The translations under genes were made by a program, and so were the position numbers. From a virus (lineage: Duplodnaviria; Caudoviricetes): 58,260 nt of DNA. The notes beneath the pieces were generated by a model that worked only from the letters and a program-made list of their open reading frames with translations, was not told the origin of the DNA and searched no databases. The stretch lies in the IMG/VR virus record IMGVR_UViG_3300042344_000667, positions 1 to 58,260 of that record; one strand, 5' to 3'. Position 1 is the first letter of the stretch, and every line of letters begins with the position of its first letter. Positions 31,959 through 58,260 of this stretch are shown here, one piece after another.

Positions 31959-32474
31959 GTGATTCTTGCCGACCATCAGATCCGTGAGCTTTGCCAGAAA
32001 GAGGCAATGGTCACGCCCTATGACGAATCGCTGCTGAATCCGGCAAGTCTTGATGTAAGACTTGGGCGACTCATTCTTGTTGAGGTTGAGCACACCGAAA
32101 AACTGCAGCCAACTGACATCAGTCATCACACAGAGGCTGACCCATACTGGCTTGCGCCCGGTGAATTTGTTCTTGCAGAAACTCAGGAAACATTCAACCT
32201 TCCTGAAGATGTTGCGGCTCAATTTATTTTGAAAAGCAGCCGTGGCCGCGAAGGTTACTCTCACGCGCTTTGCGGCTACTGCGACCCAGGATGGCATGGC
32301 AGCAAGCTGACGCTTGAACTCCACTCCCTCAGGAGGTTTCACTCATTGCCGCTATATCCAGGCATGAAAATTGGGCAGATTGTTTTCTCTTTGATGTCAG
32401 ATCAACCTGAGCGCTCTTATGCGGTCACTGGTCGCTACAACGAAGATCGATGCGTGACCGCCAGCAAGGGCTAG
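31959..32474 (+). CDS. dcd: dCTP deaminase
   Basis: NPASLDVRLG, PGEFVLAET, KSSRGREG, DPGWHG..TLEL, PGMKIGQ. Confidence 0.9.
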   Translation: MILADHQIRELCQKEAMVTPYDESLLNPASLDVRLGRLILVEVEHTEKLQPTDISHHTEADPYWLAPGEFVLAETQETFNLPEDVAAQFILKSSRGREGYSHALCGYCDPGWHGSKLTLELHSLRRFHSLPLYPGMKIGQIVFSLMSDQPERSYAVTGRYNEDRCVTASKG

Positions 32475-32505
32475 CTACCCTGTAACCGAGCCCCGACTCG
32501 CCCTT

Positions 32506-32871
32506 ATGGAGCACCAGATCGATGGCGTCGAACTGGTTAGCAAAAAAGTTACAAGACAGCGATTCAGGGCATCAATCTTTGACGCATGGCATGACTGCTG
32601 TGCATATTGTGGTCGTCACGCCACCACAATTGATCACGTAAAGCCAAAAGCGAGAGGCGGGCTCACGGTTCCCGAGAACTGCGTGCCCGCCTGTCTTTCT
32701 TGTAATGCTTCAAAAGGTCACACTTCGTTGTGGACGTGGTGGACGATGCAACATCACTGGAACTGGCATCGCGCACAACAGGTTTACGAATGGATCACTG
32801 GGGCCTGTTACCCTTCAAATGTTCAATATAGATTTGCACCTGCCATAGATCATTGGCATACCGGCAGATAG
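32506..32871 (+). CDS. HNH endonuclease
   Basis: CAYCG...TIDHVKPKARGG...NCVPACLSCNASKG. Confidence 0.85.
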   Translation: MEHQIDGVELVSKKVTRQRFRASIFDAWHDCCAYCGRHATTIDHVKPKARGGLTVPENCVPACLSCNASKGHTSLWTWWTMQHHWNWHRAQQVYEWITGACYPSNVQYRFAPAIDHWHTGR

Positions 32872-32998
32872 CACCACCGGGGCTGCAGGCGGCATAACGC
32901 ACCTCGCCAATGCCCGGCTCTTCGCCAATCTCAATAAAATAACCATCGCCGCAGTCAATTGCCCCTGTAGGCACTGCAGTCTCTTGCGAATCGGCCAC
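32795..32998 (-). CDS. Hypothetical protein
   Basis: Last ORF of the minus-strand cluster. Confidence 0.4.
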   Translation of the reverse strand: MADSQETAVPTGAIDCGDGYFIEIGEEPGIGEVRYAACSPGGAICRYANDLWQVQIYIEHLKGNRPQ

Positions 32999-33260
32999 CG
33001 GATGCTCTCCCTTCTGGAAAACCTAAATTACATCTTGCCGCAACTGCCTTCCAGTGGATGCATTGCTGGCAATATGGATGACTGTCGTCGATCGCGCGAG
33101 CATCAGCATAAAGCTGCTCTGCCTCTGGTACCGCTAGTTCCAGGTTGATGGCTCCAAGCGGCAGATCGAGCTTGCCTTTCTTGGTTTTAATGCGCACCCG
33201 CCAGCCGGGTGGCGCCTCGTAAAGCACCATCCGACCGGCGTGGTAACGCAAACTTGCCAT
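32955..33260 (-). CDS. Cys-rich hypothetical protein
   Basis: C-terminal CQQCIHW...RCNLGFPEG...ARDCS. Confidence 0.55.
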   Translation of the reverse strand: MASLRYHAGRMVLYEAPPGWRVRIKTKKGKLDLPLGAINLELAVPEAEQLYADARAIDDSHPYCQQCIHWKAVAARCNLGFPEGRASGGRFARDCSAYRGN

Positions 33261-33262
33261 TT

Positions 33263-33799
33263 TTACACGGGTATTTCCCGGAGTTTACAGATCAAGTCAT
33301 CAATTGTCCCATCATTCACGATATGACGACTGAAACCGTCAAAATCGTCAAGACTGCCTTCGCTGACGTGACCGTGTTCATGCGGCACACCAGGTCGCTC
33401 GATGCGCCACATTTCACCACCCAGCAGCTTGATCATTGCTGCTTCATTCGGGAAGCGCACGTCGTCCGCAACCACGGCCGAGTACTGCTGAGCGCGCCCT
33501 TTCCAGCAGCGCACCCAGATATCAGGATGAATACAGGCTCGTCCCCACTCTGTGCCCAAAGTTTGCAACATGTGCCGCACGCTCACGCCAGCGTCACCGA
33601 CGACAACCTGCTTAGCCTGATGAACCAGGTAATTCGCGCCATGCCTGTCATAGCCAAGTGATTCCAGCATCGGAATCAGCATCAGCTTGAGCGTTTCAGC
33701 AAACGGCACAATGACGTAACCGCGCTGCTCCAGCTCGCTAGCAACAGTTGATTTGCCCGACTGCGGTGCCGGACTATAAAGACCAATAATTTTTTGCAT
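33263..33799 (-). CDS. Deoxynucleoside monophosphate kinase
   Basis: IIGL...SGKST P-loop, RHMLQTLGTEWGR, DDVRFPNE, HVSE. Confidence 0.88.
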   Translation of the reverse strand: MQKIIGLYSPAPQSGKSTVASELEQRGYVIVPFAETLKLMLIPMLESLGYDRHGANYLVHQAKQVVVGDAGVSVRHMLQTLGTEWGRACIHPDIWVRCWKGRAQQYSAVVADDVRFPNEAAMIKLLGGEMWRIERPGVPHEHGHVSEGSLDDFDGFSRHIVNDGTIDDLICKLREIPV

Positions 33800-34471
33800 T
33801 AAAGAGTACCAGTTGAAATGTGACCGGCGCGCATGATTTCGGCAGTGTCATTTTTGAACTGCTCCCACAGGCCGGTATACGTGCCACGCAAGCCAATCTC
33901 GGCATTGTCGCGGTCGTAAAGCTCATAAAGATAATTAAGGAAATCAGACTTGCCGGTCTCGATTTGCCATGGCTTCAGCTCTTCGCAAAGCATCTCGGCA
34001 GTCAAGGGACGGATAATCCCAGTAAACAATTCTTCCATTGAAAAACCAAGGTTTGAAATAGGTTTCGACACCCCAGGTCACAGGGTGAACGCCAAAGGAC
34101 CCCACCCCTGCACTTGGCAGGTACATGTAGGTCTAACGCTGGGCGTCAGGTGCATGGTAAAGCCGCTCGAACTGCATCGAAGGCGGCTCTTCAAAGTCTT
34201 CATCTTCCTGCTGAAGATCAGCGACGCAAAGATCAGACTCATCGCGAACGATCCAGCTCACAAGCGAACTGTGCTCTTTAACCATGATCATGCCAATGCG
34301 AGGTGAGCGGCTGATCCAACGGATAAGGGCCGCTTCAAGGGGATTCAAGAAGGGATGGCTTCGCATAATTCGTTTTGAAGTAGTAGTAGGGAGCAGTCCC
34401 GTGCGTATTCTGATCCGCCTTCTGGCAGACCGAGGCCGCAGCGACCGATCCAGTGCAAGCATGCCGCACAT
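33799..34471 (-). other. Cluster of small hypothetical ORFs (33799-34071, 33944-34126, 34133-~34365)
   Basis: Overlapping minus-strand ORFs between the kinase and the Cys-rich gene; exact starts uncertain. Confidence 0.4.
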
Positions 34472-34632
34472 GGACCGCCATTATGCGCGGGCTTATATTT
34501 CTGTAACCGATTCTTCAGTTTCGCTTCGGCTTTGCCAGCAGCAGTTTCCTTGTAACAAGCTGGGCACTGCAGCAAGCTGGTTGTCATACGGCTGCAGGTT
34601 ATGCAGGGTCGAGCATTCTTAGAGACTGCCAT
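34345..34632 (-). CDS. Cys-rich hypothetical protein (paralog of 32955-33260)
   Basis: CITC...CPAC plus CAACLHW..RCGLGLPEG...ARDCS. Confidence 0.55.
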   Translation of the reverse strand: MAVSKNARPCITCSRMTTSLLQCPACYKETAAGKAEAKLKNRLQKYKPAHNGGPCAACLHWIGRCGLGLPEGGSEYARDCSLLLLQNELCEAIPS

Positions 34633-34843
34633 CAGGAAAAGCGACGCGACGGTATGAGGGCAGGCGAATAATTCTGGGTTCGCCTCTTTTGTGCTGTGCA
34701 GCGCCTTGCGGCAGCTCAACCTCAACGGTGAATGTCTTGTAGCCGCATTTCAAGCATTTGCGATGTCTTGTAATAGATTCCGCAGTGTCTCTAGCAGTAT
34801 GCGTAACGCGCATTTCGTAGTGATCGCAGCTAGGGCATCTCAC
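34619..34843 (-). CDS. NrdR-like N-terminal zinc-ribbon protein
   Basis: RCPSC...RVTHT...ITRHRKCLKCGYKTFTVE; no ATP cone. Confidence 0.65.
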   Translation of the reverse strand: MRCPSCDHYEMRVTHTARDTAESITRHRKCLKCGYKTFTVEVELPQGAAQHKRGEPRIIRLPSYRRVAFPDGSL

Positions 34844-35465
34844 CGAATGCTGCCTCCGCGATAGTCGGGAACTGTTCGGTGAAAATGTCGCGGCAGGCAA
34901 TGGCGATCTCTTGGTGCTCTAGCTGGGTGCCGTGAGCAGAGCGCAGTTGGATGTAATGCAACCACGAACGCAAAGAGCCGCACATATAAAGGGTGGTCGG
35001 CGTGCATAGCGGCAGAATCCTGCGTGCGGTCTCCTTGGCGATGCCTTCCTCGAGCATCTGCTCATACAGGGTGAATGAACGCGCAATTACGTCGCTTGTG
35101 CGCTCTGCCCAGTAGTTCTGCATATACGGTTCCAGCTCATCGATGCTGTTCTGCCGATTTTTGTGGTCCTGCAATCGTTGGTGCGGTGCGTCGGCGATGT
35201 CGGTCTTGGCGTAGCGGGTGCTGAACTCTTGAAAGGCAAACGAAGAATGCCGCAAAATCTGCGCCGCAATGTCCCGCTCAGTCTCAATTTGAACGCACAT
35301 TGTCGCCATCTGAAACGGACTCCAGTGGGAATGCTTGATCAGGTAACGCAGCAGTCGAGGTGCTGTTTCATCGTTTTCCTGGTTGGCTGGATTGGACACT
35401 CGCGCCATCCGCACAATCAACTTTTCCGCATCCGGCGTGCAATGCACCAAGCTGACGCGACTCAT
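34830..35465 (-). CDS. thyX: FAD-dependent thymidylate synthase
   Basis: HWSPF, QILRHSSFAFQEFSTRY ThyX motif, KETARRILP, LRSWLHYIQLR. Confidence 0.95.
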   Translation of the reverse strand: MSRVSLVHCTPDAEKLIVRMARVSNPANQENDETAPRLLRYLIKHSHWSPFQMATMCVQIETERDIAAQILRHSSFAFQEFSTRYAKTDIADAPHQRLQDHKNRQNSIDELEPYMQNYWAERTSDVIARSFTLYEQMLEEGIAKETARRILPLCTPTTLYMCGSLRSWLHYIQLRSAHGTQLEHQEIAIACRDIFTEQFPTIAEAAFGEMP

Positions 35466-42897: not shown

Positions 42898-43125
42898 TCA
42901 ATCCTCCGCAAGCCGAACCAGTGTGTGCCCTGCCAGCATGCCGCGCACCTTAATCAATGCATGCGAATAATCACGCGCCTCAAAGCGCACCGTCTTGACT
43001 AGCTGCGTCGACCGGCTTCGAACAGTCGCAACAAAAGGGCGCTCCTCCCTCAAGCCACGCAATGCCTCTGCGCGGCCAGGCGACTCCGGCACCCCAGCAC
43101 GTTCCAAAATCTCAGTCCAATCCAT
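42898..43125 (-). CDS. Hypothetical protein
   Basis: MDWTEILERAGVPESPGR start; first gene of the minus-strand accessory run. Confidence 0.5.
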   Translation of the reverse strand: MDWTEILERAGVPESPGRAEALRGLREERPFVATVRSRSTQLVKTVRFEARDYSHALIKVRGMLAGHTLVRLAED

Positions 43126-43486
43126 AAGCGGTAACCCTTAGGGCTCGCCCACCCTACCCCAAATCTGGCTTAAGCGCAATGTCTTGCATAATCCAGGTCG
43201 GCAATAGGTGGTGTCCGCTGCCAGGTCAGCCATGCATCATCCTTCCGTTTGCGATGCCCGCAACAAACTCAACGACTGGATCGCCCACCACCTTCCCATC
43301 CTCTGCAGCGAAGCTGCCAGCGCCGAAGAAGCTGACATGGTGAGCAGCCTTGGTCGCCTAGCTCTCTGGACTCGCATTCAACTCAGCGCCATCGAAGAGC
43401 GACGAACCCAAGACTTCGAATCACAGATGTAAAGGTTTTGTCGCATTAGATGGCCCAGATGTGCTGCAGCAGCAGGGATCTGGGCT

Positions 43487-47753: not shown

Positions 47754-50593
47754 TGAAAAACATAAAATCCAGTGACTGGGTGGCAGTAGCCGCTGCCCTT
47801 GGCGGACTTGATCGCCATCAGCTCAATGGCTCACCATCGAAGTGCCCTCTCTGCGGCACTGACGACTCCTTTATTTTTGATAGCGAAACCGGATACTGGC
47901 AATGCTCGGGTCCGCACCCCGACTTCGGTCGCTGTAGCGGTATTCGTCACGATGGCGGGCCTGATGTCCTTTCTAATTTTCTTGCTCGATTACTGAAAAC
48001 AACTCCTATTGAACAAGACCAAAACATTGAAGCCTTTATTGCTTCTATGAAGATTGACTTTGAGCAGTCAAGAGCATTTGTCAAAGCCCTGCAAAAACCG
48101 CCAACATCCATCAGACTTCGCGGTTTCTACGACAAAACAGACCCACGCAAATCAGAGGACAAAGGCGCCAAAGGAGCAGCTTCAAAGGAGTTGGTACAAG
48201 CATGGGTTGCTGACCGTCGCGGTGTTTACGTAGTAGTCAACGATGGAGGTGACAAAGACGCCGAAATCACCAATTGCCGCTCTTTCTTTTGCGAATGGGA
48301 CAATAAGCCTAAGGACTGGCAGGTAACTGCTTGGCAGGAACTTGAACTTCCAGAACCTACAATCCAGGTCGACACTGGCGGTAAATCAATCCACAACTAT
48401 TGGGTACTGGCAGAGTCAATCGCCCCAGATGCTTGGCGTGACATCCAAACACGTCTTCTTGAGTTTGCAGACGCCGATCGTTCGCTGAAGAACCCTTCTC
48501 GGGTGATGCGCCTACCAGGCACTCCACACCCCGCAACTGGAGAAGTGTGTCAAATAATCCACGCATCTGATAAAATTTACCTCGCAAGCGATATATCAAA
48601 ACTGCTACCTCTTACAGAGCAAATCAAACAACAAGAGGCGGCATCGAAATCTTCATACACCCCTCAAGATATATCTGAAATTAAAAAAGCTTTATCTTTT
48701 ATCGCGCCGCGCATCCCAGGCGGTGAAACCTATTTCTTTTATCGCAATCTTCTCTGGGGACTTGTCAAGGCAGTTGAAGAAGCTGGCAGCACCCTCGATG
48801 AAGCCGTCGCAATCATGGAGGCTCATTCACCTCAATGGAAGGGCATTCGTCAAATCGCAACATCAGGTGGTGACAAAATCAACCCCGGCACCTTCTGGTA
48901 TCACTGCATCCAAAACGGCTACAAACAACCCAAGCGTACCGTCGCACCTCCACCTCAAATAGCCCAGCAGGTCACTACCCCAACTTCAGATTTCCCCTTC
49001 CGCCTCCTTGGCTTTGATCGCACTACTTTTTACTATCTTCCAAAATCTTCTGCTCAAGTAATATCGATTACTGCCGCTCAACACAACAAAAACTACTTCT
49101 ACCTTCTCGCTGAATTGGAATGGTGGGCGCATGGTTTTTCGGCCGAAAACGGGCGCATAGACTGGGATTCTGCTCAAGATGCCATCATCAGCGCCTCCAT
49201 CGCTCAAGGCGTTTATGATCCATCCCGCATCCGTGGCCGTGGTGCATGGACCGATGCTGAACGTGTCATCTTTCACCTAGGCAATCGCTTAATCGTTGAT
49301 GGCAAATCGCATCCGATTACTAATCTCCCGGCCAGTTTTGAAAGCTATTACTTCTACGAACACGCCAAAGCAATCGACGGCCCCGGCTCTGAACCTTTAT
49401 CTGATAATGCCGCTCGCGAAATATCAAACATTGCTGAACGCTTCCGCTGGGAAACACCCGCATCCGCTCAGCTCCTTCTTGGCTGGATTGTTCTCGCACC
49501 TGCATGCGGCGCCCTTAACTGGCGTCCGCACATCTGGATCACAGGTGGCGCGGGCACTGGCAAGACCACCATCCTCAAGCAGTTCATGAAGCCACTCCTC
49601 GGCGGCATGTACGAAGGCGCTACCGGCGGCACCACTGAAGCTGGCTTGCGCGGTCAGCTCCGTTCAGACGCCATCCCTGTCGTTTTTGATGAGCTTGAGC
49701 AGAACGAACAGAAGGACAAGCAGATCGTTCAGAACATCCTTGCTCTCGCTCGCATCGCCTCATCTGAAGGCGGAAAGATCTATAAGGGCACCGCGACCGG
49801 CGGATCCAACACCTTTGAGATCCGCTCCATGTTCTGCGTCTCTTCCATCAACGTCGCTTTGGTGCAGCGGGCTGACCTGGATCGCTTTTGCGTTCTAGCC
49901 CTCCGTAAAGACGAAATGGAGCGCGACGACTGGACCTGCTTCGAGCAGGCCATCCTCGACACCTGTACTGAAGAGAACGGTCGCCGTTTAATCGCGCGCA
50001 CCCTTAAGCACATCCCATCCATTCGCAAGAACGCCAAGACCCTCGCCACTGCCCTCTCGCGGCGGTTTGGCCAGCGTTTTGGTGATCAATACGGAACGCT
50101 CCTTGCCGGCGCGTGGAGTCTGGAGCCAAACGGCGGGGGGGAGCTGTCGCTGGAACACGCGCTCCAATGGATTGATCAGATGGATTGGGAGTCGCGCGAG
50201 ATCGACGGCAACGACGCTGACGAGACCAAGTGCCTCAACCACATCCTTCAGCACCTGCTGCAGGTTGAGGGTGGCAAGCGCATGAGCGTGATCGAGCTAA
50301 TCGGACTCGCCAGGCGTGGTGTGATGTTTGCATTGCCTGGCCGCGATCAGCCGTCTGACGAGGTGGAGACGATCCTTGGTCGCTATGGCTTGCGCGTAAT
50401 GGATGGGGAACTAGCCATCGCAAATAACAGCACAAACCTGCAGGCAATCTTGCGCGAGACGCCGTGGGCTGGGACGGCCTATCGGCAGGCGCTAAGGAGG
50501 GTGCGAGGAGCGTCTGCAAGCGGCGCAGGAATTCGTTTTAAGGGCATGGGGGTGTCACGGGCGACCCTTGTGCCACTCGAGCGATTGGAATAG
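47753..50593 (+). CDS. Primase-helicase: Zn ribbon, RepB-type primase, PriCT-like domain, P-loop helicase
   Basis: CPLCG..D; VDTGGKSIHNYW and KNPSRVMRLPG; GGAGTGKTT and VFDELE. Confidence 0.88.
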   Translation: MKNIKSSDWVAVAAALGGLDRHQLNGSPSKCPLCGTDDSFIFDSETGYWQCSGPHPDFGRCSGIRHDGGPDVLSNFLARLLKTTPIEQDQNIEAFIASMKIDFEQSRAFVKALQKPPTSIRLRGFYDKTDPRKSEDKGAKGAASKELVQAWVADRRGVYVVVNDGGDKDAEITNCRSFFCEWDNKPKDWQVTAWQELELPEPTIQVDTGGKSIHNYWVLAESIAPDAWRDIQTRLLEFADADRSLKNPSRVMRLPGTPHPATGEVCQIIHASDKIYLASDISKLLPLTEQIKQQEAASKSSYTPQDISEIKKALSFIAPRIPGGETYFFYRNLLWGLVKAVEEAGSTLDEAVAIMEAHSPQWKGIRQIATSGGDKINPGTFWYHCIQNGYKQPKRTVAPPPQIAQQVTTPTSDFPFRLLGFDRTTFYYLPKSSAQVISITAAQHNKNYFYLLAELEWWAHGFSAENGRIDWDSAQDAIISASIAQGVYDPSRIRGRGAWTDAERVIFHLGNRLIVDGKSHPITNLPASFESYYFYEHAKAIDGPGSEPLSDNAAREISNIAERFRWETPASAQLLLGWIVLAPACGALNWRPHIWITGGAGTGKTTILKQFMKPLLGGMYEGATGGTTEAGLRGQLRSDAIPVVFDELEQNEQKDKQIVQNILALARIASSEGGKIYKGTATGGSNTFEIRSMFCVSSINVALVQRADLDRFCVLALRKDEMERDDWTCFEQAILDTCTEENGRRLIARTLKHIPSIRKNAKTLATALSRRFGQRFGDQYGTLLAGAWSLEPNGGGELSLEHALQWIDQMDWESREIDGNDADETKCLNHILQHLLQVEGGKRMSVIELIGLARRGVMFALPGRDQPSDEVETILGRYGLRVMDGELAIANNSTNLQAILRETPWAGTAYRQALRRVRGASASGAGIRFKGMGVSRATLVPLERLE

Positions 50594-50640
50594 GACTAGT
50601 CTCATGCGAGTCTCAAATGAGACAAATGGGACCGGCAAAG

Positions 50641-50892
50641 CGTAACGCTGTTACGGATGCTGTAACGCCGAGATCCCTTGCACCGCAAGGGTTGTTACGC
50701 TTTTACGCCTTGTTACGCTTTTCCACGGAACACCCCTATAAACACCCCCCTATATATATAATGTTGCGTATAAATACCCCCCTCTTCTTCTTCTTATCTT
50801 CCTATATAGAGATATGTGTTACAACGTTACAACCCTTGCGCTGGAAGGGATCTCGGCGTTACGGTCCCCGTAACAGGGCGTAACAGCGTTAC
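50641..50892. repeat. Long imperfect inverted repeat around an AT-rich core; putative replication origin
   Basis: 50641-50699 pairs with 50825-50892 (e.g. GTAACGCCGAGATCCCTT / AAGGGATCTCGGCGTTAC); many GTAAC/GTTAC; core with TATATATATAA. Confidence 0.7.
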
Positions 50893-50987
50893 AAGCCCCT
50901 TTGGGCACTGGAAATGGGCTCCCCCCCCCACAACCGGAGAAGCCGCGCGCGCAGTCCGTGGCCGGAATTCCCGCCTACGCTCAAGCC

Positions 50988-51716
50988 ATGGCCCGCTCCA
51001 TCGAATTCGACGCCGAAAAGCTGATCGGGAGCATCGACGCCTTGCGCGGTGCTCAGCTTCCATTCGCTGGTAACCGCGCCCTGCAGCAGCTCGGTTTTCA
51101 GCTCAGGCAGGACCTGCAGCGTGAGATGCGCGACAAGTTCGAGAACCCGGTGCCGTTCACGCTCTCTAGCCCGCGTTATCGGGTGGATGGGCTCGAGCTG
51201 ACGGTGTCGATTTCGAAGGACGGGGCGAAGGGGCAGGATCCGGCGCGGTATTTGTTCCCGGTGACTGCTGAGGGGGGCGGGGCTGGTGGCGGGAAGCCTG
51301 CGTACATCACACGCTTCACTAGGGCCGTGCGAGCGCTTGGTGTGGTGGATGCGAGCTACTACGCGATTCCGTTCCTGAAGGGTCGTGGCGTGCGGGTGAA
51401 CGCCTACGGGAACATGTCGCCTGGCCAGTATCAGCAGGTGCTGCAGGGGCTGAAGACGGGCATGGGCGCGGGCAGGCAGGGGTCGCAATGGCGGTACTTC
51501 TCGGTGCCGGATGGTCGAGGTGGCGGTCGCAACACGGGTCGGTTGAAGCCGGGCATCTACCGAGCGAAGTCGAACGACGTGCAGCTCCTGTTCACGTATG
51601 CGCGCAGGCAACCGACAGTGCCGGTGCTGTTTGATTTCGAGGGTGTGGTGGCTCGTCGTTCGCAGGAGCTGCTGCCGTCGCTGCTGTCGCGGGCGCTTGA
51701 CAACGCGCTGAAATAG
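50988..51716 (+). CDS. Putative neck/tail-completion protein (gpZ/HK97 gp10-like)
   Basis: QLPFA..RAL...FENPVPFTL, NAYGNM, FDF motifs. Confidence 0.5.
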   Translation: MARSIEFDAEKLIGSIDALRGAQLPFAGNRALQQLGFQLRQDLQREMRDKFENPVPFTLSSPRYRVDGLELTVSISKDGAKGQDPARYLFPVTAEGGGAGGGKPAYITRFTRAVRALGVVDASYYAIPFLKGRGVRVNAYGNMSPGQYQQVLQGLKTGMGAGRQGSQWRYFSVPDGRGGGRNTGRLKPGIYRAKSNDVQLLFTYARRQPTVPVLFDFEGVVARRSQELLPSLLSRALDNALK

Positions 51717-51726
51717 GTGCCATAAT
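51697..51726 (+). promoter_or_regulatory. Sigma70-type promoter
   Basis: TTGACA-18 nt-CATAAT upstream of the ligase-like gene. Confidence 0.6.
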
Positions 51727-51750
51727 TCGTGGCGTTATCGCTTACCGGTT

Positions 51751-52473
51751 ATGTCGGTTGATTCGTTGAGGAAGCAGGTGCGGCAGGCAGACGCGGCTTA
51801 CAGGGCCGGCCAGGCGCTGATGACCGATGCCGAGTTCGATGCGCTGTGTGCAGAGCTGCGCGTGGTGGCACCGATGGCGCCAGAGCTGCAGCAGCCAGGC
51901 GGTGGTACGGCGCTGTTGTCGCTCGATAACGGCCTGCTCGAGGATTGGTGGCCTGGTGTGCCGGTGTTGGTGCAGCCGAAGATCGACGGCGCTGCAGTGG
52001 CGCTGCGCTACGAGCGTGGTGTGCTTGCTGCGGCGTGGACACGGAGCGGCCGCGATTGCATGGCGGTGGTGCAGGGGCTGGTGCCTGCGCGGCTGCCTGT
52101 GAGTGATGTGTTGGAGGTGCGCGGTGAGCTGTGGGGGCACGATGGCCGCCAGAGCACGCCAGCGACGGCTCTGAGGCGCATGAAGGGTGGTTCAGGTGGT
52201 TTGGGCTTCATCGCATACGGAGGCGCCTTCCAGGAGCGCACAGAGATCGATGCGATGGCGTTGATCGGCGACCTGGGTTTCGACGTGGTCGATTCACTGC
52301 TCACCACCCGCATCGATGAGGTGCAGGGGCTGCATGCGAAGTGGAAGGCAGGGAGGCTGTGGAATCGCCCGTGGGGTACCGATGGCGTGGTGGTGAAGGT
52401 GGTCTGCCGTGAGCTGCAGCGCGAAATGGGCGAGACCGGCCGCGCACCTCGGTGGGCGCTGGCCGTTAAGTGA
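51751..52473 (+). CDS. Truncated NAD-dependent DNA ligase (domain Ia plus adenylation domain only)
   Basis: AY..G...MTDAEFDAL, LLSLDN, QPKIDG, EVRGE, TDGVVVKV, PRWALAVK then stop. Confidence 0.85.
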   Translation: MSVDSLRKQVRQADAAYRAGQALMTDAEFDALCAELRVVAPMAPELQQPGGGTALLSLDNGLLEDWWPGVPVLVQPKIDGAAVALRYERGVLAAAWTRSGRDCMAVVQGLVPARLPVSDVLEVRGELWGHDGRQSTPATALRRMKGGSGGLGFIAYGGAFQERTEIDAMALIGDLGFDVVDSLLTTRIDEVQGLHAKWKAGRLWNRPWGTDGVVVKVVCRELQREMGETGRAPRWALAVK

Positions 52474-52503
52474 TCGCTTTGTTTAACTCTTATTTTTTTA
52501 ATC

Positions 52504-52833
52504 ATGAAACGCACAGTGATTTTTTTTGCCGCAATTCTTCAGCAGTTGGTGCCTGCGCCAGCAGATGCACGGCCAGTGACTGCAACGGTTTACGACGGTT
52601 GGTATCACGGTCGCACTGAATATTGCGGCGGCACATATCAACACTGGGGAATTTCAGCAGCGCATCCATGGCTGCCGTGTAACACGCGGGTGACGGTGCG
52701 ACACCGAGGGCGCGTGCTCGTCGTGCCGATCCGTGACAGGTGCGATTGCAATTCGATCGATCTCAGTGCTGGTGCTGCACATCGCCTTGGTGTGCCGCTG
52801 GATGGCATCGCGACAGTGCAGATCTCATATTGA
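52504..52833 (+). CDS. RlpA-like double-psi beta-barrel protein with signal peptide
   Basis: YHGR...AAHPWLP..TRVTV...IRDR...IDLS.GAA..LG. Confidence 0.8.
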   Translation: MKRTVIFFAAILQQLVPAPADARPVTATVYDGWYHGRTEYCGGTYQHWGISAAHPWLPCNTRVTVRHRGRVLVVPIRDRCDCNSIDLSAGAAHRLGVPLDGIATVQISY

Positions 52834-52871
52834 GACTCACTGCGCCGGAAGGAATCTCATCTGTCTCAACT

Positions 52872-53288
52872 ATGAAGCTCATCACCCGTCACACCCGCGC
52901 TCCACGCGCTGGCGCCTTCATTCGCTGCCCTTACTGTCAAGAGGTATCGCTTGTGCATCACTTCTGCTGGAGCGCGCTCACTTGCGCGCATTGTTCGGAG
53001 TCGGTCTCGAAGCCGAGTTGGGCTTACTGCGATCGCACCGAGGTGGATCCGCTCACGATCCTGCAGCTCGGCTCACCCGTCACTCTCCGCGATGACGACG
53101 AGTGGGCATCGTGGTTGCCTGATGGCGATCGCGTGATCTCGATGTACGGCACTGGCGGTCATGTATCGCACAGCCGCAATCGAATGGAAGGCCGCATCCA
53201 GATCTCGCGTGAGGTTGCGTTGCGGCAGGTTCAGACACATCTTGAATACGGCTGGAAGATGGACACACGCGGCAAGGGGCTGATCTGA
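52872..53288 (+). CDS. Zinc-finger hypothetical protein
   Basis: CPYC...HFCWSALTCAHC. Confidence 0.6.
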   Translation: MKLITRHTRAPRAGAFIRCPYCQEVSLVHHFCWSALTCAHCSESVSKPSWAYCDRTEVDPLTILQLGSPVTLRDDDEWASWLPDGDRVISMYGTGGHVSHSRNRMEGRIQISREVALRQVQTHLEYGWKMDTRGKGLI

Positions 53289-53554
53289 TGAGTACTGGAT
53301 CTCGTTCGCTGCGGCTTGCTGATCAGCTTGCGCGTCAGCCGTATGTATGGCCCGGTGGCTACCCGCTGCATGGTGTCACCGACGATGGTGGCGTGATCTG
53401 TCGTATCTGCGCTGTTGATGAACGTGAATCAATCGCGTTGACTGACGGGCGTGATGGATGGTGCTTGATTTCGCTTCGGGTGAACTGGGAAGACCCGGAG
53501 CTGCGATGTGATTGCTGTGGGCGGGTTGTGGAGGCAGCGTATGAAGACGATTGA
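53288..53554 (+). CDS. Cys-containing hypothetical protein
   Basis: YVWPGGYP, DGGVICRIC, NWED..LRCDCCG...EAAY. Confidence 0.65.
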   Translation: MSTGSRSLRLADQLARQPYVWPGGYPLHGVTDDGGVICRICAVDERESIALTDGRDGWCLISLRVNWEDPELRCDCCGRVVEAAYEDD

Positions 53555-53954
53555 AAAGGACAGGGACCCGCTGTGTGTCGGTTTTTATTGCTTTCTTGCG
53601 CAGCCAAAAAAATTTAGGAACCCTGGAGGTTCGGTTTTTATAGGGGTATTTTTACTTTTATTTACATACACATTCCGATCCGTTTTTACCCCCTTCCGCC
53701 CAGCCGCAGCGAGAGACGCGGGATTGCGCCGCCAAAAAACACACCCCTATTATATATAGATAGTGCTGCATGGTTTGCAACAGCATGCAAGTGCGATTGC
53801 AGGAGAGGTGTAGCGAACCGCGTGGAGGGTTGGCTACATCGCAATCGCGATTGCAGGCGCCGGCATGCACGGGCGCAGAGAGTTAGCAACACAAACTCGC
53901 GGTGAGTTTGCATCGGTTACTGCTGCGCGGTTGGTATTTGCAATTTGCGCCGGC

Positions 53955-54214
53955 TTGGTGAAGCTCACTACCCCGTGGGGTTGGTGAAGCTCACTACCCC
54001 GTGGGGTTGGTGAAGCTCACTACCCCGTGGGGTTGGTGAAGCTCACTACCCCGTGGGGTTGGTGAAGCTCACTACCCCGTGGGGTTGGAGATGCTCACTA
54101 CCCCGTGGGGTTGGTGAAGCTCACTACCCCGTGGGGTTGGTGAAGCTCACTACCCCGTGGGGTTGGTGAAGCTCACTACCCCGTGGGGTTGGTGAAGCTC
54201 ACTACCCCGTGGGG
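53955..54214. repeat. Tandem array of 10 x 26 bp (TTGGTGAAGCTCACTACCCCGTGGGG)
   Basis: Nine exact copies; copy 6 (54085-54110) has two substitutions (TTGGAGATGCTC...); no spacers. Confidence 0.97.
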
Positions 54215-54412
54215 TGAGTTAGCTACCGCTACCCGTGCGGGTTTGGGTTGCTAACTGCGCGCGGGTTGCTGATGCGATCGCGCGGCGGGGTTGCTGATGC
54301 AAACCCGAGGCCGCCCGCTGATGGGGTGACCTGTGCCGAGGGTGGCCCGGGTGGCTGTGCCGGGAGCAACCCGGCCGGGTGGGCCGGTGGCACCCTCGCT
54401 ATGGGGTGTGGG

Positions 54413-54442
54413 TTGCCAGGTGGGCGGGGGCGGCTATATAAA
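54413..54442 (+). promoter_or_regulatory. Sigma70-type promoter for the terminal module
   Basis: TTGCCA at 54413 followed by TATATAAA at 54435, in otherwise very GC-rich DNA. Confidence 0.5.
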
Positions 54443-54467
54443 GGGTGGGCGTTATCGCTTATCTCTT

Positions 54468-55418
54468 ATGTCGACCTTGATTCCTGCCGATCAGGCCCTC
54501 GCGATCCTGCGCGCTGCGGGCGTGAACGCTGCTAAGAGCCCCGCGCGCGGGCGCTGCCGCACCCTTTGCTATCTGGTGGGCGGTCAATACGTGAACCTCG
54601 GCCGACTGCGGGAGCTCGCCCGGGAGGCTCAGGCCGCCCAGGCTGAGCCCGCCCGGGTGGTGGCTGAGCCTGAGGCTGAGGCTGTCGCCCACCTGTGCCG
54701 CAAGTTCCCCATCAGCACCCCCGCCACCTGGATCCCTGCTGTCGCCCGCCTGCAGGCCCGGGGTGCGGCTGTGACCGTGGGCGCAATCCTGCGGGAGACT
54801 GAGCGCCCTGCCCCTGTGCTGCCGGGTGAGGCCCGCCCCGGTGCTGCCCCTGAGCCCCTCGCCCAGGTGGAAGTCGACCCTTACAAGCGGGGTGAGTGGC
54901 AGCGCACAGGTATTGGCCCCGATCCTGTGGCCGTTGCTGAGCGCAGGGCGGCCAGGTGGGCTGAGCGCAACCCAGAGCACTCTTATCGAGTTGTGGTTGT
55001 GGCCCCACGTCCGGTGCTGCCGGGTGAGACTGAGCCCCCGGCCCCTGTTGCGCAGGATGGCCCGGCCCCTGATCTGCCGAACCTGGCCACCCCCGCGCCC
55101 ACGGGTGACGGCTGGGCGGGGCAGCCGTGGGACCCCGGCACCCCTGAGGCCCGCGCGCGGGTGGCGCAGCAGGGTGAGCGGGTGGCAACCCTGTGGCCCA
55201 TCGCCCAGGCTGTTAAGGGTGCGGGGTTTGATCTGCCGCCCGTGTGGTGGGCTGATGGCCCGATCCTGGCTGGTGAGCGAACCTATGGGGAGGCCCTGGC
55301 TGCGCTGCCCCTGGGCGCAATTGCGGCAGCCGCTGCCGCCCTGGCTGCGCTGCCGCCCGTTACGGCTGCGCAGGATCGGGCGCTCAGGCTGTGTCGGGGT
55401 GACCTGGCCGCAGTGTGA
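54468..55418 (+). CDS. Ala/Pro-rich hypothetical protein
   Basis: Long ORF; ATG at 54468 follows the conserved leader; internal PVLPGE repeat. Confidence 0.6.
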   Translation: MSTLIPADQALAILRAAGVNAAKSPARGRCRTLCYLVGGQYVNLGRLRELAREAQAAQAEPARVVAEPEAEAVAHLCRKFPISTPATWIPAVARLQARGAAVTVGAILRETERPAPVLPGEARPGAAPEPLAQVEVDPYKRGEWQRTGIGPDPVAVAERRAARWAERNPEHSYRVVVVAPRPVLPGETEPPAPVAQDGPAPDLPNLATPAPTGDGWAGQPWDPGTPEARARVAQQGERVATLWPIAQAVKGAGFDLPPVWWADGPILAGERTYGEALAALPLGAIAAAAAALAALPPVTAAQDRALRLCRGDLAAV

Positions 55419-55522
55419 CAATTGCGCAGCCTTGCCACCCGGTAGGGGCTGCGCTGCTCACCTGGCCCCATAGTGGGTCTGCGCCCGCAGGGCGCCCCTT
55501 TATCTCTTACCTGTTGCCTCTG

Positions 55523-55690
55523 ATGTTGAACCGTTCCGCCGCTGCCGCCCTCGCTGCAGGCCTTGCTTTCGGATCCTGTGCCCTGGCTGTTTGCCTGACT
55601 GCGGGGATTAATCAGGCCCTGGCCCTGGCCGCATGCCGGGAGGATGCCGCCTTGGCCCGTATCTCTGCTGATCACTGCGCCCTGCGCTGA
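55523..55690 (+). CDS. Small membrane or secreted protein
   Basis: MLNRSAAAALAAGLAFGSCALAVCLTAG; preceded by TTATCTCTTACCTGTT. Confidence 0.5.
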   Translation: MLNRSAAAALAAGLAFGSCALAVCLTAGINQALALAACREDAALARISADHCALR

Positions 55691-55727
55691 TTCTCCCGCC
55701 TCTCTTATCTCTTACTTGTTAACTGCC

Positions 55728-56465
55728 ATGCAAACCCTTTCTCACCCTTACGATCCCGCCGCCCTAACTGCCCTCGGATGCGACAGGGTGGCCACTGATG
55801 TTGCCCACGGCCCCGTGGTGAGCTCCCGCGCGGCTGTCGTTGTCCGCTACGGCTGCGATTCTCAGGGCCGGGGCCAGTGGGTCGCGACCCTTAAGCGCAG
55901 TTCTCGCGACAGGGCCGCCCGGCTGGCCGTACCTGCCGCCGATGGCCCGGATGCGGCAGCCGCTGCCCTTCTAAAACGGCAGGGCCTGCCATGGCGCGCC
56001 CTGCCCGCTGTGGGCTCACTTGACGGGGGCGAGTCCTATGCGTACGTAACGGCCCTCACCCCCAGCGAGGGCGAGGCCCTGGCCCATGGCGCCCAGGCGA
56101 TACAGGCCCTGGCCGCATGCCGGGAGTTGGTGGCGGCCTGTGCTGCCGGGGCTGATGCTGAGGCCCTGGCCCTGCCGCTGATGCTGGCCAGGATGGCCAC
56201 CGGGCAGGAGAGGGGCGCGCGCCCAGTGGTTGCTGGGTTCGCCCTGATGCGTTACGGGGTTGAGGTTAGGGGCATCCTGGGCGAGGCCCTTTTCACCCTG
56301 CCCGATACCTACAGCCCCGCCCACGTCTTGGCCTGCGCTGAGGTTGCCGGCTGGCTTTTGACCGCTGAGATGCGGGCGGTAGCCGCCCGGCATCGTGAGG
56401 TTTGCGCATCTGAGCCTCACCCGGACGGGGTGGCGATCGCGCGGGCTGCCCGGGGGGTGGCCTGA
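55728..56465 (+). CDS. Hypothetical protein
   Basis: ATG follows the TTATCTCTTACTTGTT leader. Confidence 0.6.
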   Translation: MQTLSHPYDPAALTALGCDRVATDVAHGPVVSSRAAVVVRYGCDSQGRGQWVATLKRSSRDRAARLAVPAADGPDAAAAALLKRQGLPWRALPAVGSLDGGESYAYVTALTPSEGEALAHGAQAIQALAACRELVAACAAGADAEALALPLMLARMATGQERGARPVVAGFALMRYGVEVRGILGEALFTLPDTYSPAHVLACAEVAGWLLTAEMRAVAARHREVCASEPHPDGVAIARAARGVA

Positions 56466-56716
56466 TGGCACGCCAGCACAGGATCCAGCCCGGCGATCGG
56501 GTGCGTTACAGCTCCACCTTCTGTCAGCAGATGGGGGCGGTTACCGGCTGGCTCCCACAGGCCCGGGGTGTGGTGGTGGCCCTGTGGGGTGGCGGCCAGG
56601 ATCTGGCCCGTATCCGTTGGGATCACCACCCGGATGGCCCGGGCACCCTGGGCGGCGCCCACGTGGAGAACCTCCAGCGCCAAACCCCTGACGGCAGGTG
56701 GGCGCCCCGCCGCTGA
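56465..56716 (+). CDS. Small SH3/KOW-like protein
   Basis: IQPGDRVRY...GVVV...ARIRWD...VENL; TGATG coupling. Confidence 0.55.
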   Translation: MARQHRIQPGDRVRYSSTFCQQMGAVTGWLPQARGVVVALWGGGQDLARIRWDHHPDGPGTLGGAHVENLQRQTPDGRWAPRR

Positions 56717-56799
56717 TGGCCACCCGGTGCCCTGCCCCTGCCCGGGGTGGGCACCCTGTGGCCCTCGCCCGGCCTCTTACCTATTACCTGTTACCTCAA

Positions 56800-57885
56800 A
56801 TGCAAACCACAGCAACCGCCACCCGTTGCGCCCCCGTGAGGATGCCGGCTGATATCAGCGCCCACCTGGCCCGGTTTGGCCTCACCCTGGGCGACCTGTT
56901 GACGGATTCAAACCCCAAAATGCAAAAGGGCAGCGCTCAGGCTGTGGGGGTGATTCTTCACCACCTGCCCGCGCGCGCCCTGGCTGCCGCTGTCACCCCC
57001 GGGCACCGGGGCAGCACAGCACCCCGTAGTTATTTGCCCGCCCTCGCCCACCTGGCCGATAGAGAGGGGCTGGGCGAACAGGCCCGCGCCCATAACGGCT
57101 GCCCCTGGGCTACGGCTGGCTGTGCTGCCGGCTGTCTCAACTGGGCGGGCCACGGGGGGCTTAGCCCGGCTGTTGCTGCTGCTCGTGGGCGTCGCACTCT
57201 TGCGATGCTGGCGGATCCTGGCCTTTACGGGCGGGCGATTCTGTGGGCGATCGTGAGGGCGTGGGCGCGCGCCCAGGCTCAGGGGCTGCCCCTGGCCGTG
57301 AGACTGCGCGGAACCGATGAAGGCCCCCGGTGCGGCTGGCATCGGCTGGGGTTGCTTGTGCCGGTTGCTGATGCTGTGGCCCTGGCCCATAGGTTTGGCG
57401 CTGCTATCAGCCCCGGGGCCGTCACTCTGGCCGAGGCTTTGGGCGTCTTGCGCAGTGAGGGCGCTCTCTACCTTTATGAGTATTCAAAGGCGCCCCTATC
57501 AGGCCCTTTGGGGCTCTGGGCTCAGGCTGATGCCGGGTTTGACGTGACAGCCAGCCTGGCTGCCGATCGGGCTACGGCTGTGGCTGATGCGGCCCTGGCT
57601 GTTCGCGCGGGATTCCGGTTGGCTGTGCCCGTGGCCCTGCGCAAGGGGCAGCCGCTGCCGGTGGCCCTCGCCCTGGCCCCGGATCACGGGCCAGCCGTAA
57701 CGGTGCCTTGCGTTAACGGTGACCTCTCAGATCACAGGTGGGCGGATCCTGAGGGCGTAGCCGTGATCCTGCGCAGCAAAATGAGCCGAGGGGCAGGGCC
57801 TGAGGCTGCCCCGTTCCACCTGGCCCCGATCGCTGACGCCCAGCCCCTGGCTGATGGGGCCGCCCGTCTGATCTGGGCGCCCTGA
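56800..57885 (+). CDS. GP88-like protein with radical-SAM-like Cys motif
   Basis: NPKMQK, CPWATAGCAAGCL, VRLRGTDE, YEYSK, NGDLSDHRWADP. Confidence 0.7.
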   Translation: MQTTATATRCAPVRMPADISAHLARFGLTLGDLLTDSNPKMQKGSAQAVGVILHHLPARALAAAVTPGHRGSTAPRSYLPALAHLADREGLGEQARAHNGCPWATAGCAAGCLNWAGHGGLSPAVAAARGRRTLAMLADPGLYGRAILWAIVRAWARAQAQGLPLAVRLRGTDEGPRCGWHRLGLLVPVADAVALAHRFGAAISPGAVTLAEALGVLRSEGALYLYEYSKAPLSGPLGLWAQADAGFDVTASLAADRATAVADAALAVRAGFRLAVPVALRKGQPLPVALALAPDHGPAVTVPCVNGDLSDHRWADPEGVAVILRSKMSRGAGPEAAPFHLAPIADAQPLADGAARLIWAP

Positions 57886-57911
57886 GCCTTATCCCATAGC
57901 CTCAGCTCCTG

Positions 57912-57944
57912 GCCCTCGCCCTTTACCGGGCGGGGGCTTTTGTT
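57912..57944 (+). terminator. Intrinsic terminator closing the terminal module
   Basis: GCCCTCGCCC-TTTACC-GGGCGGGGGC hairpin plus TTTTGTT. Confidence 0.7.
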
Positions 57945-58247
57945 GTGCCCTCGCCCTGTTGATCGGGCGGGGCTTTGCTGTGCCGAGCGTGGGCAGTTGC
58001 GCCCCGGTTGCTGTCACACTGGGCGGCTGATTCCAGCCCGGGCGCCCCGTAACTTGGCTTGCAATTGCGCAGGGGTGAGCATCAGCAACCGCCCCGCAAT
58101 ATCGGCAGCCGCCCGCCCTCATTGGTGGGCTTTTGTATTTGTATTTGTATTTGCGAAAATCTGCTAAGTGTTAGAAACCCCTTGCAATCCTAAGTGCTGC
58201 AAATATCTTTATACAAACTCGGGTCCCTCTGGCGCCCGGGACTCGCG

Positions 58248-58260
58248 AGGTAATTCGAAT
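58248..58260. repeat. 13-bp terminal direct repeat (right copy)
   Basis: Identical to 1-13. Confidence 0.75.

Follow-up and report, generated by a model that had tools for sequence, protein, structure and literature searches.

The right end of a 58,260-bp phage genome from lake water (IMG/VR record IMGVR_UViG_3300042344_000667, analysed over its whole length and called the window here) carries a cassette of co-oriented genes, A to E, that is rich in guanine plus cytosine (GC) and is preceded by a tandem array of ten 26-bp repeats. We interpret this cassette, with middling confidence, as a conserved and self-contained operon of accessory or early genes, whose operator has been amplified and whose auxiliary sites possibly serve in looping or insulation. 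In the proposed arrangement, a sigma-70-like promoter (54413-54442, + strand) would drive A, B, C, possibly D, and E, transcription would end at two or three terminators, and the repeats would be protein-binding sites rather than a barrier to DNA entry. The first-pass annotation of this DNA had instead seen a terminal module fenced off by a repeat element, possibly a first-injected region with a boundary or stop signal.

The array (53955-54215; 26 bp x 10.0 copies, 98% matches, score 508) is present as first described; no other tandem array in the window scores highly, the next best reaching 100. Each unit is quasi-palindromic, which yields about 20 alternating half-sites and means that the whole array can form a single long hairpin (z-score of folding -13.8 for RNA and -13.0 for DNA; 0 of 100 shuffles were equally stable). 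Quasi-palindromic units are what is expected of sites bound by a dimer, and they thus support an operator reading. The generalised half-site GGTTGSTGAWGC, allowing at most one mismatch, has 16 matches, 14 of them in 53953-58090, whereas 100 shuffles gave a mean of 1.8 and at most 6. Exact copies of GGTTGCTGATGC number four in 58,260 bp, at 54264 (+), 54289 (+), 57363 (+) and 58079 (-), precisely the positions reported earlier, including the internal one.

These copies mark three places. The promoter-proximal half-sites (54245-54306, +) consist of a degenerate copy at 54245 and the exact copies at 54264 and 54289, the last lying within the dyad GGGTTGCTGATGCAAACCC. A single half-site falls inside gene E (57363-57374, +), where synonymous shuffles predict 0.02. 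An inverted 32-nt copy of the proximal putative-operator region (58073-58104, -), with its half-site at 58079-58090, pairs with 54275-54306 as an imperfect inverted repeat of 78% complementarity. A second motif that had been said to flank the cassette fared less well: the (GTATTT)3 run at 58132-58153 is real, but GTATTTGC occurs four times genome-wide (13020-, 29461+, 53934+ and 58147+), no more often than chance would give. When array words flanking the cassette were sought as exact 11-mers in other loci, none turned up except in L030, which has one operator copy downstream; a fence on either side of the cassette is therefore not the general rule (related loci are cited by L numbers).

Copy number was followed in relatives whose gene A has the same N-terminal domain as in this phage, hereafter window-type. 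Six such relatives, 81-95% identical, come from metagenomes; L048 has only 173 bp upstream, leaving five that are readable. The 26-bp repeat is present in 0 copies in L046, 0 in L050, 3.7 in L047, 6.5 in L051 and at least 9.4 in L049, against 10 in the window. Both exact proximal half-sites are kept in L046 and one in L050, the two relatives that lack the array. Some metagenomic contigs break at the arrays or in the GC island (L012, L021, L024 and L025 start in E; L049 starts in the array); because contigs break there, the repeats fragment short-read assemblies, and copy numbers, including the window's 10, may be misjudged.

The half-sites co-occur with the N-terminal domain of gene A. When half-sites were counted within 800 bp upstream of A, in loci with a domain at least 81% identical and at least 350 bp of upstream sequence, all six window-type loci (the window included) held 2-12 of them; loci with other N-terminal domain types (L035, L036, L043, L044 and L045) held them in 0 of 5 cases, and the background is 6 matches in 370 kb. 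L036 shares 96% of gene A residues 58-180, yet has a different N-terminal domain and a different array (24 bp x 5). Other domain types likewise go with other repeats at the same place, namely five GTAC-N4-GTAC palindromes in L035 and a 35 bp x 5 array in L043.

The transcription signals are conserved as well. The promoter, read from the sequence as TTGCCA-N16-TATATA(AA), was passed over by a consensus scan that required T at position 6 of the -10 element. Its form, TTGCCA/TTGACG/TTGCTA with TATATA(A/T), is kept in 5 of 5 window-type relatives with enough upstream sequence and also in L035 and L043, and the leader is conserved in the same loci. The pyrimidine-rich leader TCTTAYCTNTTRCC (at most 2 mismatches) has 9 matches, a total that 0 of 100 shuffles reached, and 6 of the 9 precede B, C and E. 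A GC-rich hairpin found by the hairpin scan lies between A and B (55481-55495, +), ahead of the shared leader. Two tandem intrinsic-terminator-like hairpins (57911-57938 and 57949-57972, +), which form a 35-bp x 2.1 repeat, close the operon; hairpin and repeat scans place a third terminator-like hairpin at 58111-58130, followed by a TTTGTA x 3.7 microsatellite (together 58111-58153, +). The view that the module has its own promoter, shared leaders and terminators is thus borne out.

From this anatomy we propose that the basic element is the half-site GGGTTGCTGATGC. It would form a conserved dyad some 110-150 bp ahead of the promoter and, in this phage, would have been multiplied into a lattice in which half-sites alternate (26 bp x 10), with further single copies inside gene E and, inverted, just past the terminators. 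As binder, the likeliest candidate is gene A's N-terminal domain, suggested by sequence co-occurrence, and A would then autoregulate the operon. A might also loop or insulate the operon between its upstream and downstream sites. The lambda OL-OR loop and the 'stoperators' of mycobacteriophage L5 are comparable in that a short sequence-specific site recurs close to a promoter and also stands singly within the transcription unit and past its end; they differ in that ten head-to-tail copies, as seen here, are unusual, and no repressor-type fold was found.

Several observations weigh against this proposal. Pfam, PHROGs, Foldseek and VIA-align assigned no DNA-binding fold or family to gene A. The co-occurrence of motif and domain is confounded by physical adjacency and relatedness, and a simple co-variation of array and N-terminal domain across the wider family was rejected, L013 and L019 sharing an 18-bp unit but differing in domain. 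The nearest half-site lies about 110 bp from the -35 element, where a simple repressor would not sit, and ten tandem sites exceed the needs of autoregulation. There was no RNA run among the public runs listed for the region. The proposal also leaves the sustained high GC unexplained.

The position of the cassette at a physical genome end bears on the reading of the first-pass annotation. IMG/VR rates the record as 100% complete and classes it as linear without end repeats. The 13-mer AGGTAATTCGAAT occurs in the window at 1-13 and at 58248-58260, and at the right end it follows a conserved inverted repeat, GGGTCCC...GGGACTC, in a putative cohesive-end region (58203-58260). The independent contig L043 ends at a homologous 13-mer (7179-7191) that differs by one base, and a homologous end site is found at L041 140-153; in the 57,405-bp relative G001 and in locus L036, the sequence continues uninterrupted across the 13-mer site. 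The conserved inverted repeat precedes this site in the window, L043, G001 and L036. End repair of 5' cohesive ends leaves the same short sequence at both ends of an assembly, and the 13-nt repeat is probably such a 13-nt 5' cohesive end. The shared 13-mer and the stop of the L043 contig together indicate that the module adjoins the right physical end in this lineage, as proposed for a cos-type genome, and the window represents a lake-water siphovirus in full, its 13-nt ends being of the cohesive type.

On this basis one may ask whether the right 4 kb enters the cell first, with the array pausing transfer until module products acting in anti-defence or takeover have been made, as in T5. T5 has a first-step-transfer region with an injection-stop signal, about 10-kb terminal repeats and pre-early genes; to our knowledge, two-step DNA entry is known only from T5-like siphoviruses. 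There is a likeness: a terminal segment of a siphovirus adjoins the right cohesive end, which by analogy with lambda should leave the capsid first, it has repeats and palindromes at its inner border, and its own host-type promoter and terminators would make its genes readable by host polymerase. Distant GP88 homologues of gene E, moreover, lie within about 2.5 kb of the record end in 5 of 9 records (four mycobacteriophages and HMO-2011). The array, however, is missing or far shorter in the 81-95% identical relatives listed above, and a required stop signal could hardly be dispensable, which speaks against the repeat 'fence' as a boundary. The same cassette and arrays also occur in unrelated phages, and in L005 nucleotide-metabolism genes separate the cassette from the terminase gene. 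Terminal repeats are only 13 nt long here, with no long ones, and the avoidance of restriction-type sites is genome-wide rather than specific to the module. The five proteins have no match to a PHROG family of known function and none to a PADLOC family, and scans against Pfam and PHROGs found no pre-early homologues, so that the suggested anti-defence content received no support. We consider staged entry of this kind very improbable.

The non-coding region in front of A invites a different comparison. Between the stop codon at 53554 and the ATG of A at 54468 it measures 913 bp, rather than the roughly 750 bp first estimated. It contains a terminator-like hairpin and T run (53618-53632, +) that closes the upstream replication-gene operon and is terminator-like on the - strand too; a homologous hairpin plus TTTTATAG elements is found in L035, L036 and L043. 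An AT-richer tract covers 53580-53760 (46% GC in the 200-bp stretch 53601-53800); next comes a cluster of 'TGCA' palindromes (53760-53950) with a 14-bp perfect palindrome, GCAATCGCGATTGC, at 53841-53854 and two copies of GCGATTGCAGG. Elements of the GCGATTGC type occupy the corresponding position in L036 and L043.

Such a region could be a replication origin of the lambda or P1 type, in which 26-bp dyad-symmetric iterons stand beside an AT-richer tract, gene A or the C-terminal part of a 946-residue primase-helicase acts as initiator, and the copies in and after E are control sites. Iterons flank the rep gene on both sides in P1 and F and are dyad-symmetric in lambda ori, and the tandem symmetric repeats, AT-richer tract, nearby replication genes and copies a few kilobases away recall lambda ori, P1 incC/incA and P4 ori/crr. 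The region lies 3 kb downstream of replication genes (two helicases, the primase-helicase and a ligase domain) and holds the only large array of the genome, which has strong hairpin or cruciform potential; among relatives the repeat sequence varies while its position is kept, and in L022 and L043 an AT-rich stretch immediately adjoins the arrays. In the window itself, the repeats are present, and the AT-richer tract has a GC content of 46% and lies about 200 bp away. Close relatives have anything between 0 and 10 copies, with 0 in L046 and L050 despite the same gene A domain and promoter, whereas essential repeats should persist. No initiator family was recognised in Pfam, PHROGs or NCBIfam, and a DnaA-box-like pattern has one match in the genome and none in the region. 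GC skew changes sign at about 47-50 kb, where gene orientation switches, not at the array. The arrays, finally, are tied to the enzyme cassette rather than to a rep gene, following E even beside different neighbour genes. An origin, though on the whole unlikely, is a reasonable alternative. A partition centromere was rejected, there being no ParA- or ParM-like gene among the open reading frames (ORFs) scanned, and so was a transposon bounded by the 32-nt inverted repeats, given no target-site duplication by eye and no transposase family match.

Base composition sets the cassette apart, as had been claimed for about 54.25-58.1 kb. Segment 54230-58110 has 69.2% GC against 53.2% in 1-50000; the rise nevertheless begins earlier than described, at about 50.9 kb, with 59.5% GC in 50000-54229 and two genes (50901-51716 and 51751-52473) at 64-66% GC and a third-position GC content (GC3) of 0.76-0.77. 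The same property recurs with gene E in other phages. Relatives of E occur in 33 other viral contigs, most of which share almost nothing else with the window; when the closer relatives are included, the E sequences form 22 lineages at the 90% identity level (pairwise identity 42-89%, median 60%). E has 60-76% GC against 48-62% in its flanks, exceeding them in 20 of 20 lineages with measurable flanks, and the excess extends to each of the three codon positions. In 17 of the 19 loci compared, GC3 lies at 0.67-0.78 against 0.41-0.62, the exceptions being L035 and L036 (backbone GC3 0.73-0.74). The islands are 2-4 kb long with sharp borders. Because high GC recurs in 20 of 20 lineages at a median identity of 60%, the composition is old and not the footprint of a recent transfer; by this comparison of sequences, it is an intrinsic property of the cassette kept in many phage lineages. 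Its persistence points to selection on DNA or mRNA, to biased repair at the locus, or to continual exchange among genes of a GC-rich pool, and GC-biased gene conversion is a candidate cause that we infer.

Architecture is conserved along with composition, as the first-pass annotation had suggested checking in related phages. In the 33 E-bearing loci, 48 of 54 array regions lie within 2 kb upstream of E, a zone that makes up 15.9% of the sequence, and such an upstream array is present in 22 of 28 loci with at least 1.5 kb of upstream sequence. L035, L036, L043, L044 and L045 share the order ...-A-(B)-C-E, and in L036 the E-type gene is followed by terS and terL. The cassette is present in all relatives that include the region (L007, L035, L036, L037, L038, L043, L044 and L045).

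Short-word usage gives a mixed picture. The module is rich in GGG/CCC (observed/expected 1.16, against 0.53 in the rest of the genome) and poor in GAA and AAG (0.49 and 0.82 of base-composition expectation), as described; the GGG/CCC contrast between backbone and module is a true signature difference beyond GC content. Backbone 1-53554 also avoids GGCC (0.63) and CCGG (0.68) besides GGG/CCC (0.53), and the module does not. TCGA stands at 0.27 of base-composition expectation, but the 3 observed copies match the 3.1 of synonymous shuffles, so that its scarcity does not go beyond codon usage. The hexamers GGGCCC, CCGCGG, CAGCTG and ACGCGT are absent from the whole 58 kb, where 7-30 copies of each are expected; in the module, 0 are found against 11.7 expected for the four together, and zero was reached in 0 of 3000 synonymous-codon shuffles. 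Depletion beyond composition is thus real, but it is genome-wide. Relatives' cassettes do hold these hexamers (L043, for example, has 9 GGGCCC and 7 CCGCGG). Since the module is free of the hexamers avoided by its backbone and relatives' cassettes are not, it has been moulded by the same avoidance pressure as the backbone, and in this respect nothing sets it apart. Several unrelated E-bearing loci also lack CCGCGG, CAGCTG and ACGCGT, and an absence common to unrelated loci points to shared host restriction systems; the idea that host restriction shaped the k-mer content keeps its ground for the genome, not for the module in particular.

These data also bear on whether the cassette is a moron in Hendrix's sense, a promoter-gene-terminator unit newly acquired from a high-GC host or phage whose composition has not yet drifted. 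With the lambdoid morons it shares its own promoter, its own terminators, a deviating GC content and a position beside cos. Genes A and C are strongly mosaic, and a 367-bp patch in gene A (54640-55006, matching L036 4675-5041) is 93.7% identical amid flanking matches of 65-70%; so near-identical a patch between such flanks indicates recent recombination within the module, and together with the mosaic genes it marks the locus as a recombination hot spot. On the same side of the argument, the backbones of the relatives L035, L036, L043 and L045 are higher in GC. Unlike a moron, however, the cassette stands at the same place in every relative examined rather than as a presence/absence polymorphism, and its composition is ancient and maintained, being GC-rich in 20 of 20 lineages. 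A collection of 185,579 prokaryote species (one genome each) gave only 2 matches, both on metagenome-assembled contigs with phage gene order. The module is purged of exactly those hexamers that the backbone avoids and that relatives' cassettes retain. The ORFs scanned, which were part of the total, included no integrase or repressor, so that expression from a prophage, as in morons, is unlikely. Recent acquisition therefore seems quite improbable.

An assembly chimera, joining a phage to unrelated high-GC DNA, would account for an abrupt GC change beside a repeat array able to mislead an assembler. The same junctions and gene order nonetheless recur in independent records, L035 (57,405 bp), L036, L043, L044 and L045, and in L036 the E-type gene continues into terS and terL. 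In four independent lake-water runs, both sides of the junction are present at similar depth, and the listed pieces show 0 differences; the Logan contigs of these runs are too short to bridge the array or show the ends. The hexamer avoidance that the module shares with the backbone argues the same way, and we regard the likelihood of a chimera as verging on nil. Neither a chimera nor a recent high-GC transfer, two of the outcomes that had been named as refuting the first-pass reading, has come true.

Gene E (56800-57885, +; 361 residues) belongs to the GP88 / phrog_1617 family. It scores 27.9 bits against Pfam PF17338 (GP88), above the gathering cut-off of 24.4 (E-value 2.6e-6), and matches phrog_1617 (E-value 2.8e-23); PF17338 is carried by most of its metagenomic relatives. 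Three cysteines, C101, C108 and C112, are invariant (Cx6Cx3C), as are many basic residues. The predicted structure (mean predicted local distance difference test score, pLDDT, 87.6) has an alpha/beta barrel-like fold and, in a viral structure library, resembles predicted GP88 and Gp37/Gp68-like proteins, one of the latter with an E-value of 8e-11. In VIA-align, 15 of the 16 best rows were radical S-adenosylmethionine (SAM) enzymes at weak scores (Z 4.7-5.9). Foldseek against the PDB returned nothing at an E-value of 0.001 or below, the profile against PDB sequences nothing below 0.5, and the ESM Atlas only viral hypothetical or DUF7227 clusters at 0.90. The Gp37/Gp68 family, DUF5131, is listed as a radical SAM subgroup at RadicalSAM.org (PMC9477430). 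We did not adopt an assignment of E as a radical SAM enzyme; its motif is Cx6Cx3C instead of CX3CX2C. E is, on the predicted model, a GP88-family protein with a weakly radical-SAM-like fold, probably an enzyme. A literature search on PF17338/GP88 found no published function.

Many phage loci encode E as a fusion protein, in which Pro/Ala/Gln-rich linkers join it to N-terminal domains of varying type, and it sits here within a GC island with arrays upstream. Since the attached domains vary, E is probably tethered to DNA or to something sequence-specific. One could go further and see in the cassette a new phage system in which an Fe-S radical-SAM-like GP88 enzyme is tethered by exchangeable DNA-binding domains to its own target-site arrays and acts on the DNA there, for example in site-directed modification or in control of replication or transcription. 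It would sit on the first-entering genome end, its GC content at all codon positions actively maintained through selection on DNA or mRNA or through GC-biased repair at a recombination hot spot. We rate this picture as distinctly unlikely, and hold to the amplified-operator interpretation.

Of the remaining genes in the module, A, B and C have homologues in related loci, as E does; ORF D does not, so that the original count of five co-oriented genes is secure for four. Gene A (54468-55418, +; 316 residues) consists of a conserved N-terminal domain (1-55), a Pro/Ala-rich mosaic middle and a conserved C-terminal domain (about 218-316). Gene B (55523-55690, +; 55 residues) has a hydrophobic N-terminus and is 78% identical over 55 residues in L035. 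Gene C (55728-56465, +; 245 residues) has 71 metagenomic relatives and is found in L036, L043, L044 and L045. ORF D (56465-56716, +; 83 residues) belongs to no family, has no match in 8 related loci and is unsupported. Searches of A-D against Pfam, PHROGs, NCBIfam and PADLOC gave no meaningful match, the one PHROG row for gene C (phrog_38220, E-value 0.32) being at chance level, and Pfam searches of eight N-terminal domains and two other pieces gave nothing. A, B and C are thus families without known function that are restricted to these phages. For the gene A model, Foldseek against the PDB found nothing at an E-value of 0.001 or below, and the best VIA-align Z was 4.8; VIA-align rows suggesting an RbcS/SSUL-like or an origin-binding protein were treated as noise. 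Residues 131-178 (54858-55001), a small beta-alpha-beta domain, gave weak matches resembling the Rubisco small subunit (Foldseek E-value above 1; VIA-align Z 3.8). This likeness is probably noise, if a curious one should the host be cyanobacterial.

Two further sequence elements were noted around the cassette. Many phages carry, directly after the upstream gene, 3-4 copies of a GGAYCCGGCT-N5-6-GTATT repeat with a period of 21-23 bp; the site lies about 1-1.7 kb upstream of E in the L002-L034 loci (for example L022 1593-1674 and L005 8770-8890). A single hairpin-like version stands at 53616-53650 of the window, and the GTATT words of the first-pass annotation may belong to this element. The leader motif GTTAYCGCTTAYC occurs directly before the start codons of the ligase-domain gene (51734-51746) and of gene A (54451-54463), with a 2-mismatch variant at 43123-43135 (-) in front of a small ORF on the minus strand. 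In distant phages, words of the CTTACC type stand ahead of the E genes, and L020 and L033 have whole arrays of them. GTTAYCGCTTAYC may resemble the complement of a conserved 16S rRNA segment close to the 3' end.

The gene map of the rest of the genome comes from four sets of family scans covering part of the ORFs. Terminase small-subunit-like and large-subunit genes lie at the left end, and the structural genes include a 2,103-residue ORF of tape-measure size. Further genes encode an endolysin, a dCTP deaminase, a dNMP kinase, a thymidylate synthase, a RecE-like exonuclease, a DPBB lytic transglycosylase and replication-type proteins (a polymerase exonuclease subunit, two helicases and the 946-residue primase-helicase). 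The dCTP deaminase, dNMP kinase and thymidylate-synthase-family genes stand side by side at 31959-35465; with a putative Fe-S-type enzyme in E, this nucleotide-gene cluster raises the question of a modified base in the phage DNA. NAD-dependent DNA ligase is present only as a 240-residue adenylation domain (51751-52473), and a separate 88-residue protein (53288-53554) falls in a PHROG family likewise labelled DNA ligase; the two may be a split or reduced ligase. No tRNA genes were found, and an Rfam search of 50000-58260 gave nothing credible.

The sole link to a cultured phage is the capsid gene, of which 341 nt match Synechococcus phage S-CBS3 at 73%, and a megablast of 53400-58260 against cultured phages returned no match. 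The public runs containing the phage sequence are mostly labelled lake-water metagenomes. On this capsid match, a cyanophage identity is plausible.

Taken as a whole, the cassette indicates that a GC island with sharp borders, a promoter and terminators of its own need not have been imported recently and can be a family-wide, maintained trait, which calls for caution when horizontal transfer or morons are called from composition. For the T5 analogy, the results lower the odds of staged entry and make the idea experimentally specific. They also define a widespread, uncharacterised cassette of freshwater phages, with upstream arrays, variable N-terminal domains and a probable GP88 enzyme, and give Pfam GP88 a genomic context and testable partners. 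Residues 1-58 of gene A and the GGGTTGCTGATGC half-site form a candidate domain/site pair, and the natural copy-number series from 0 to 10 offers material for learning what amplified operators do in these phages.

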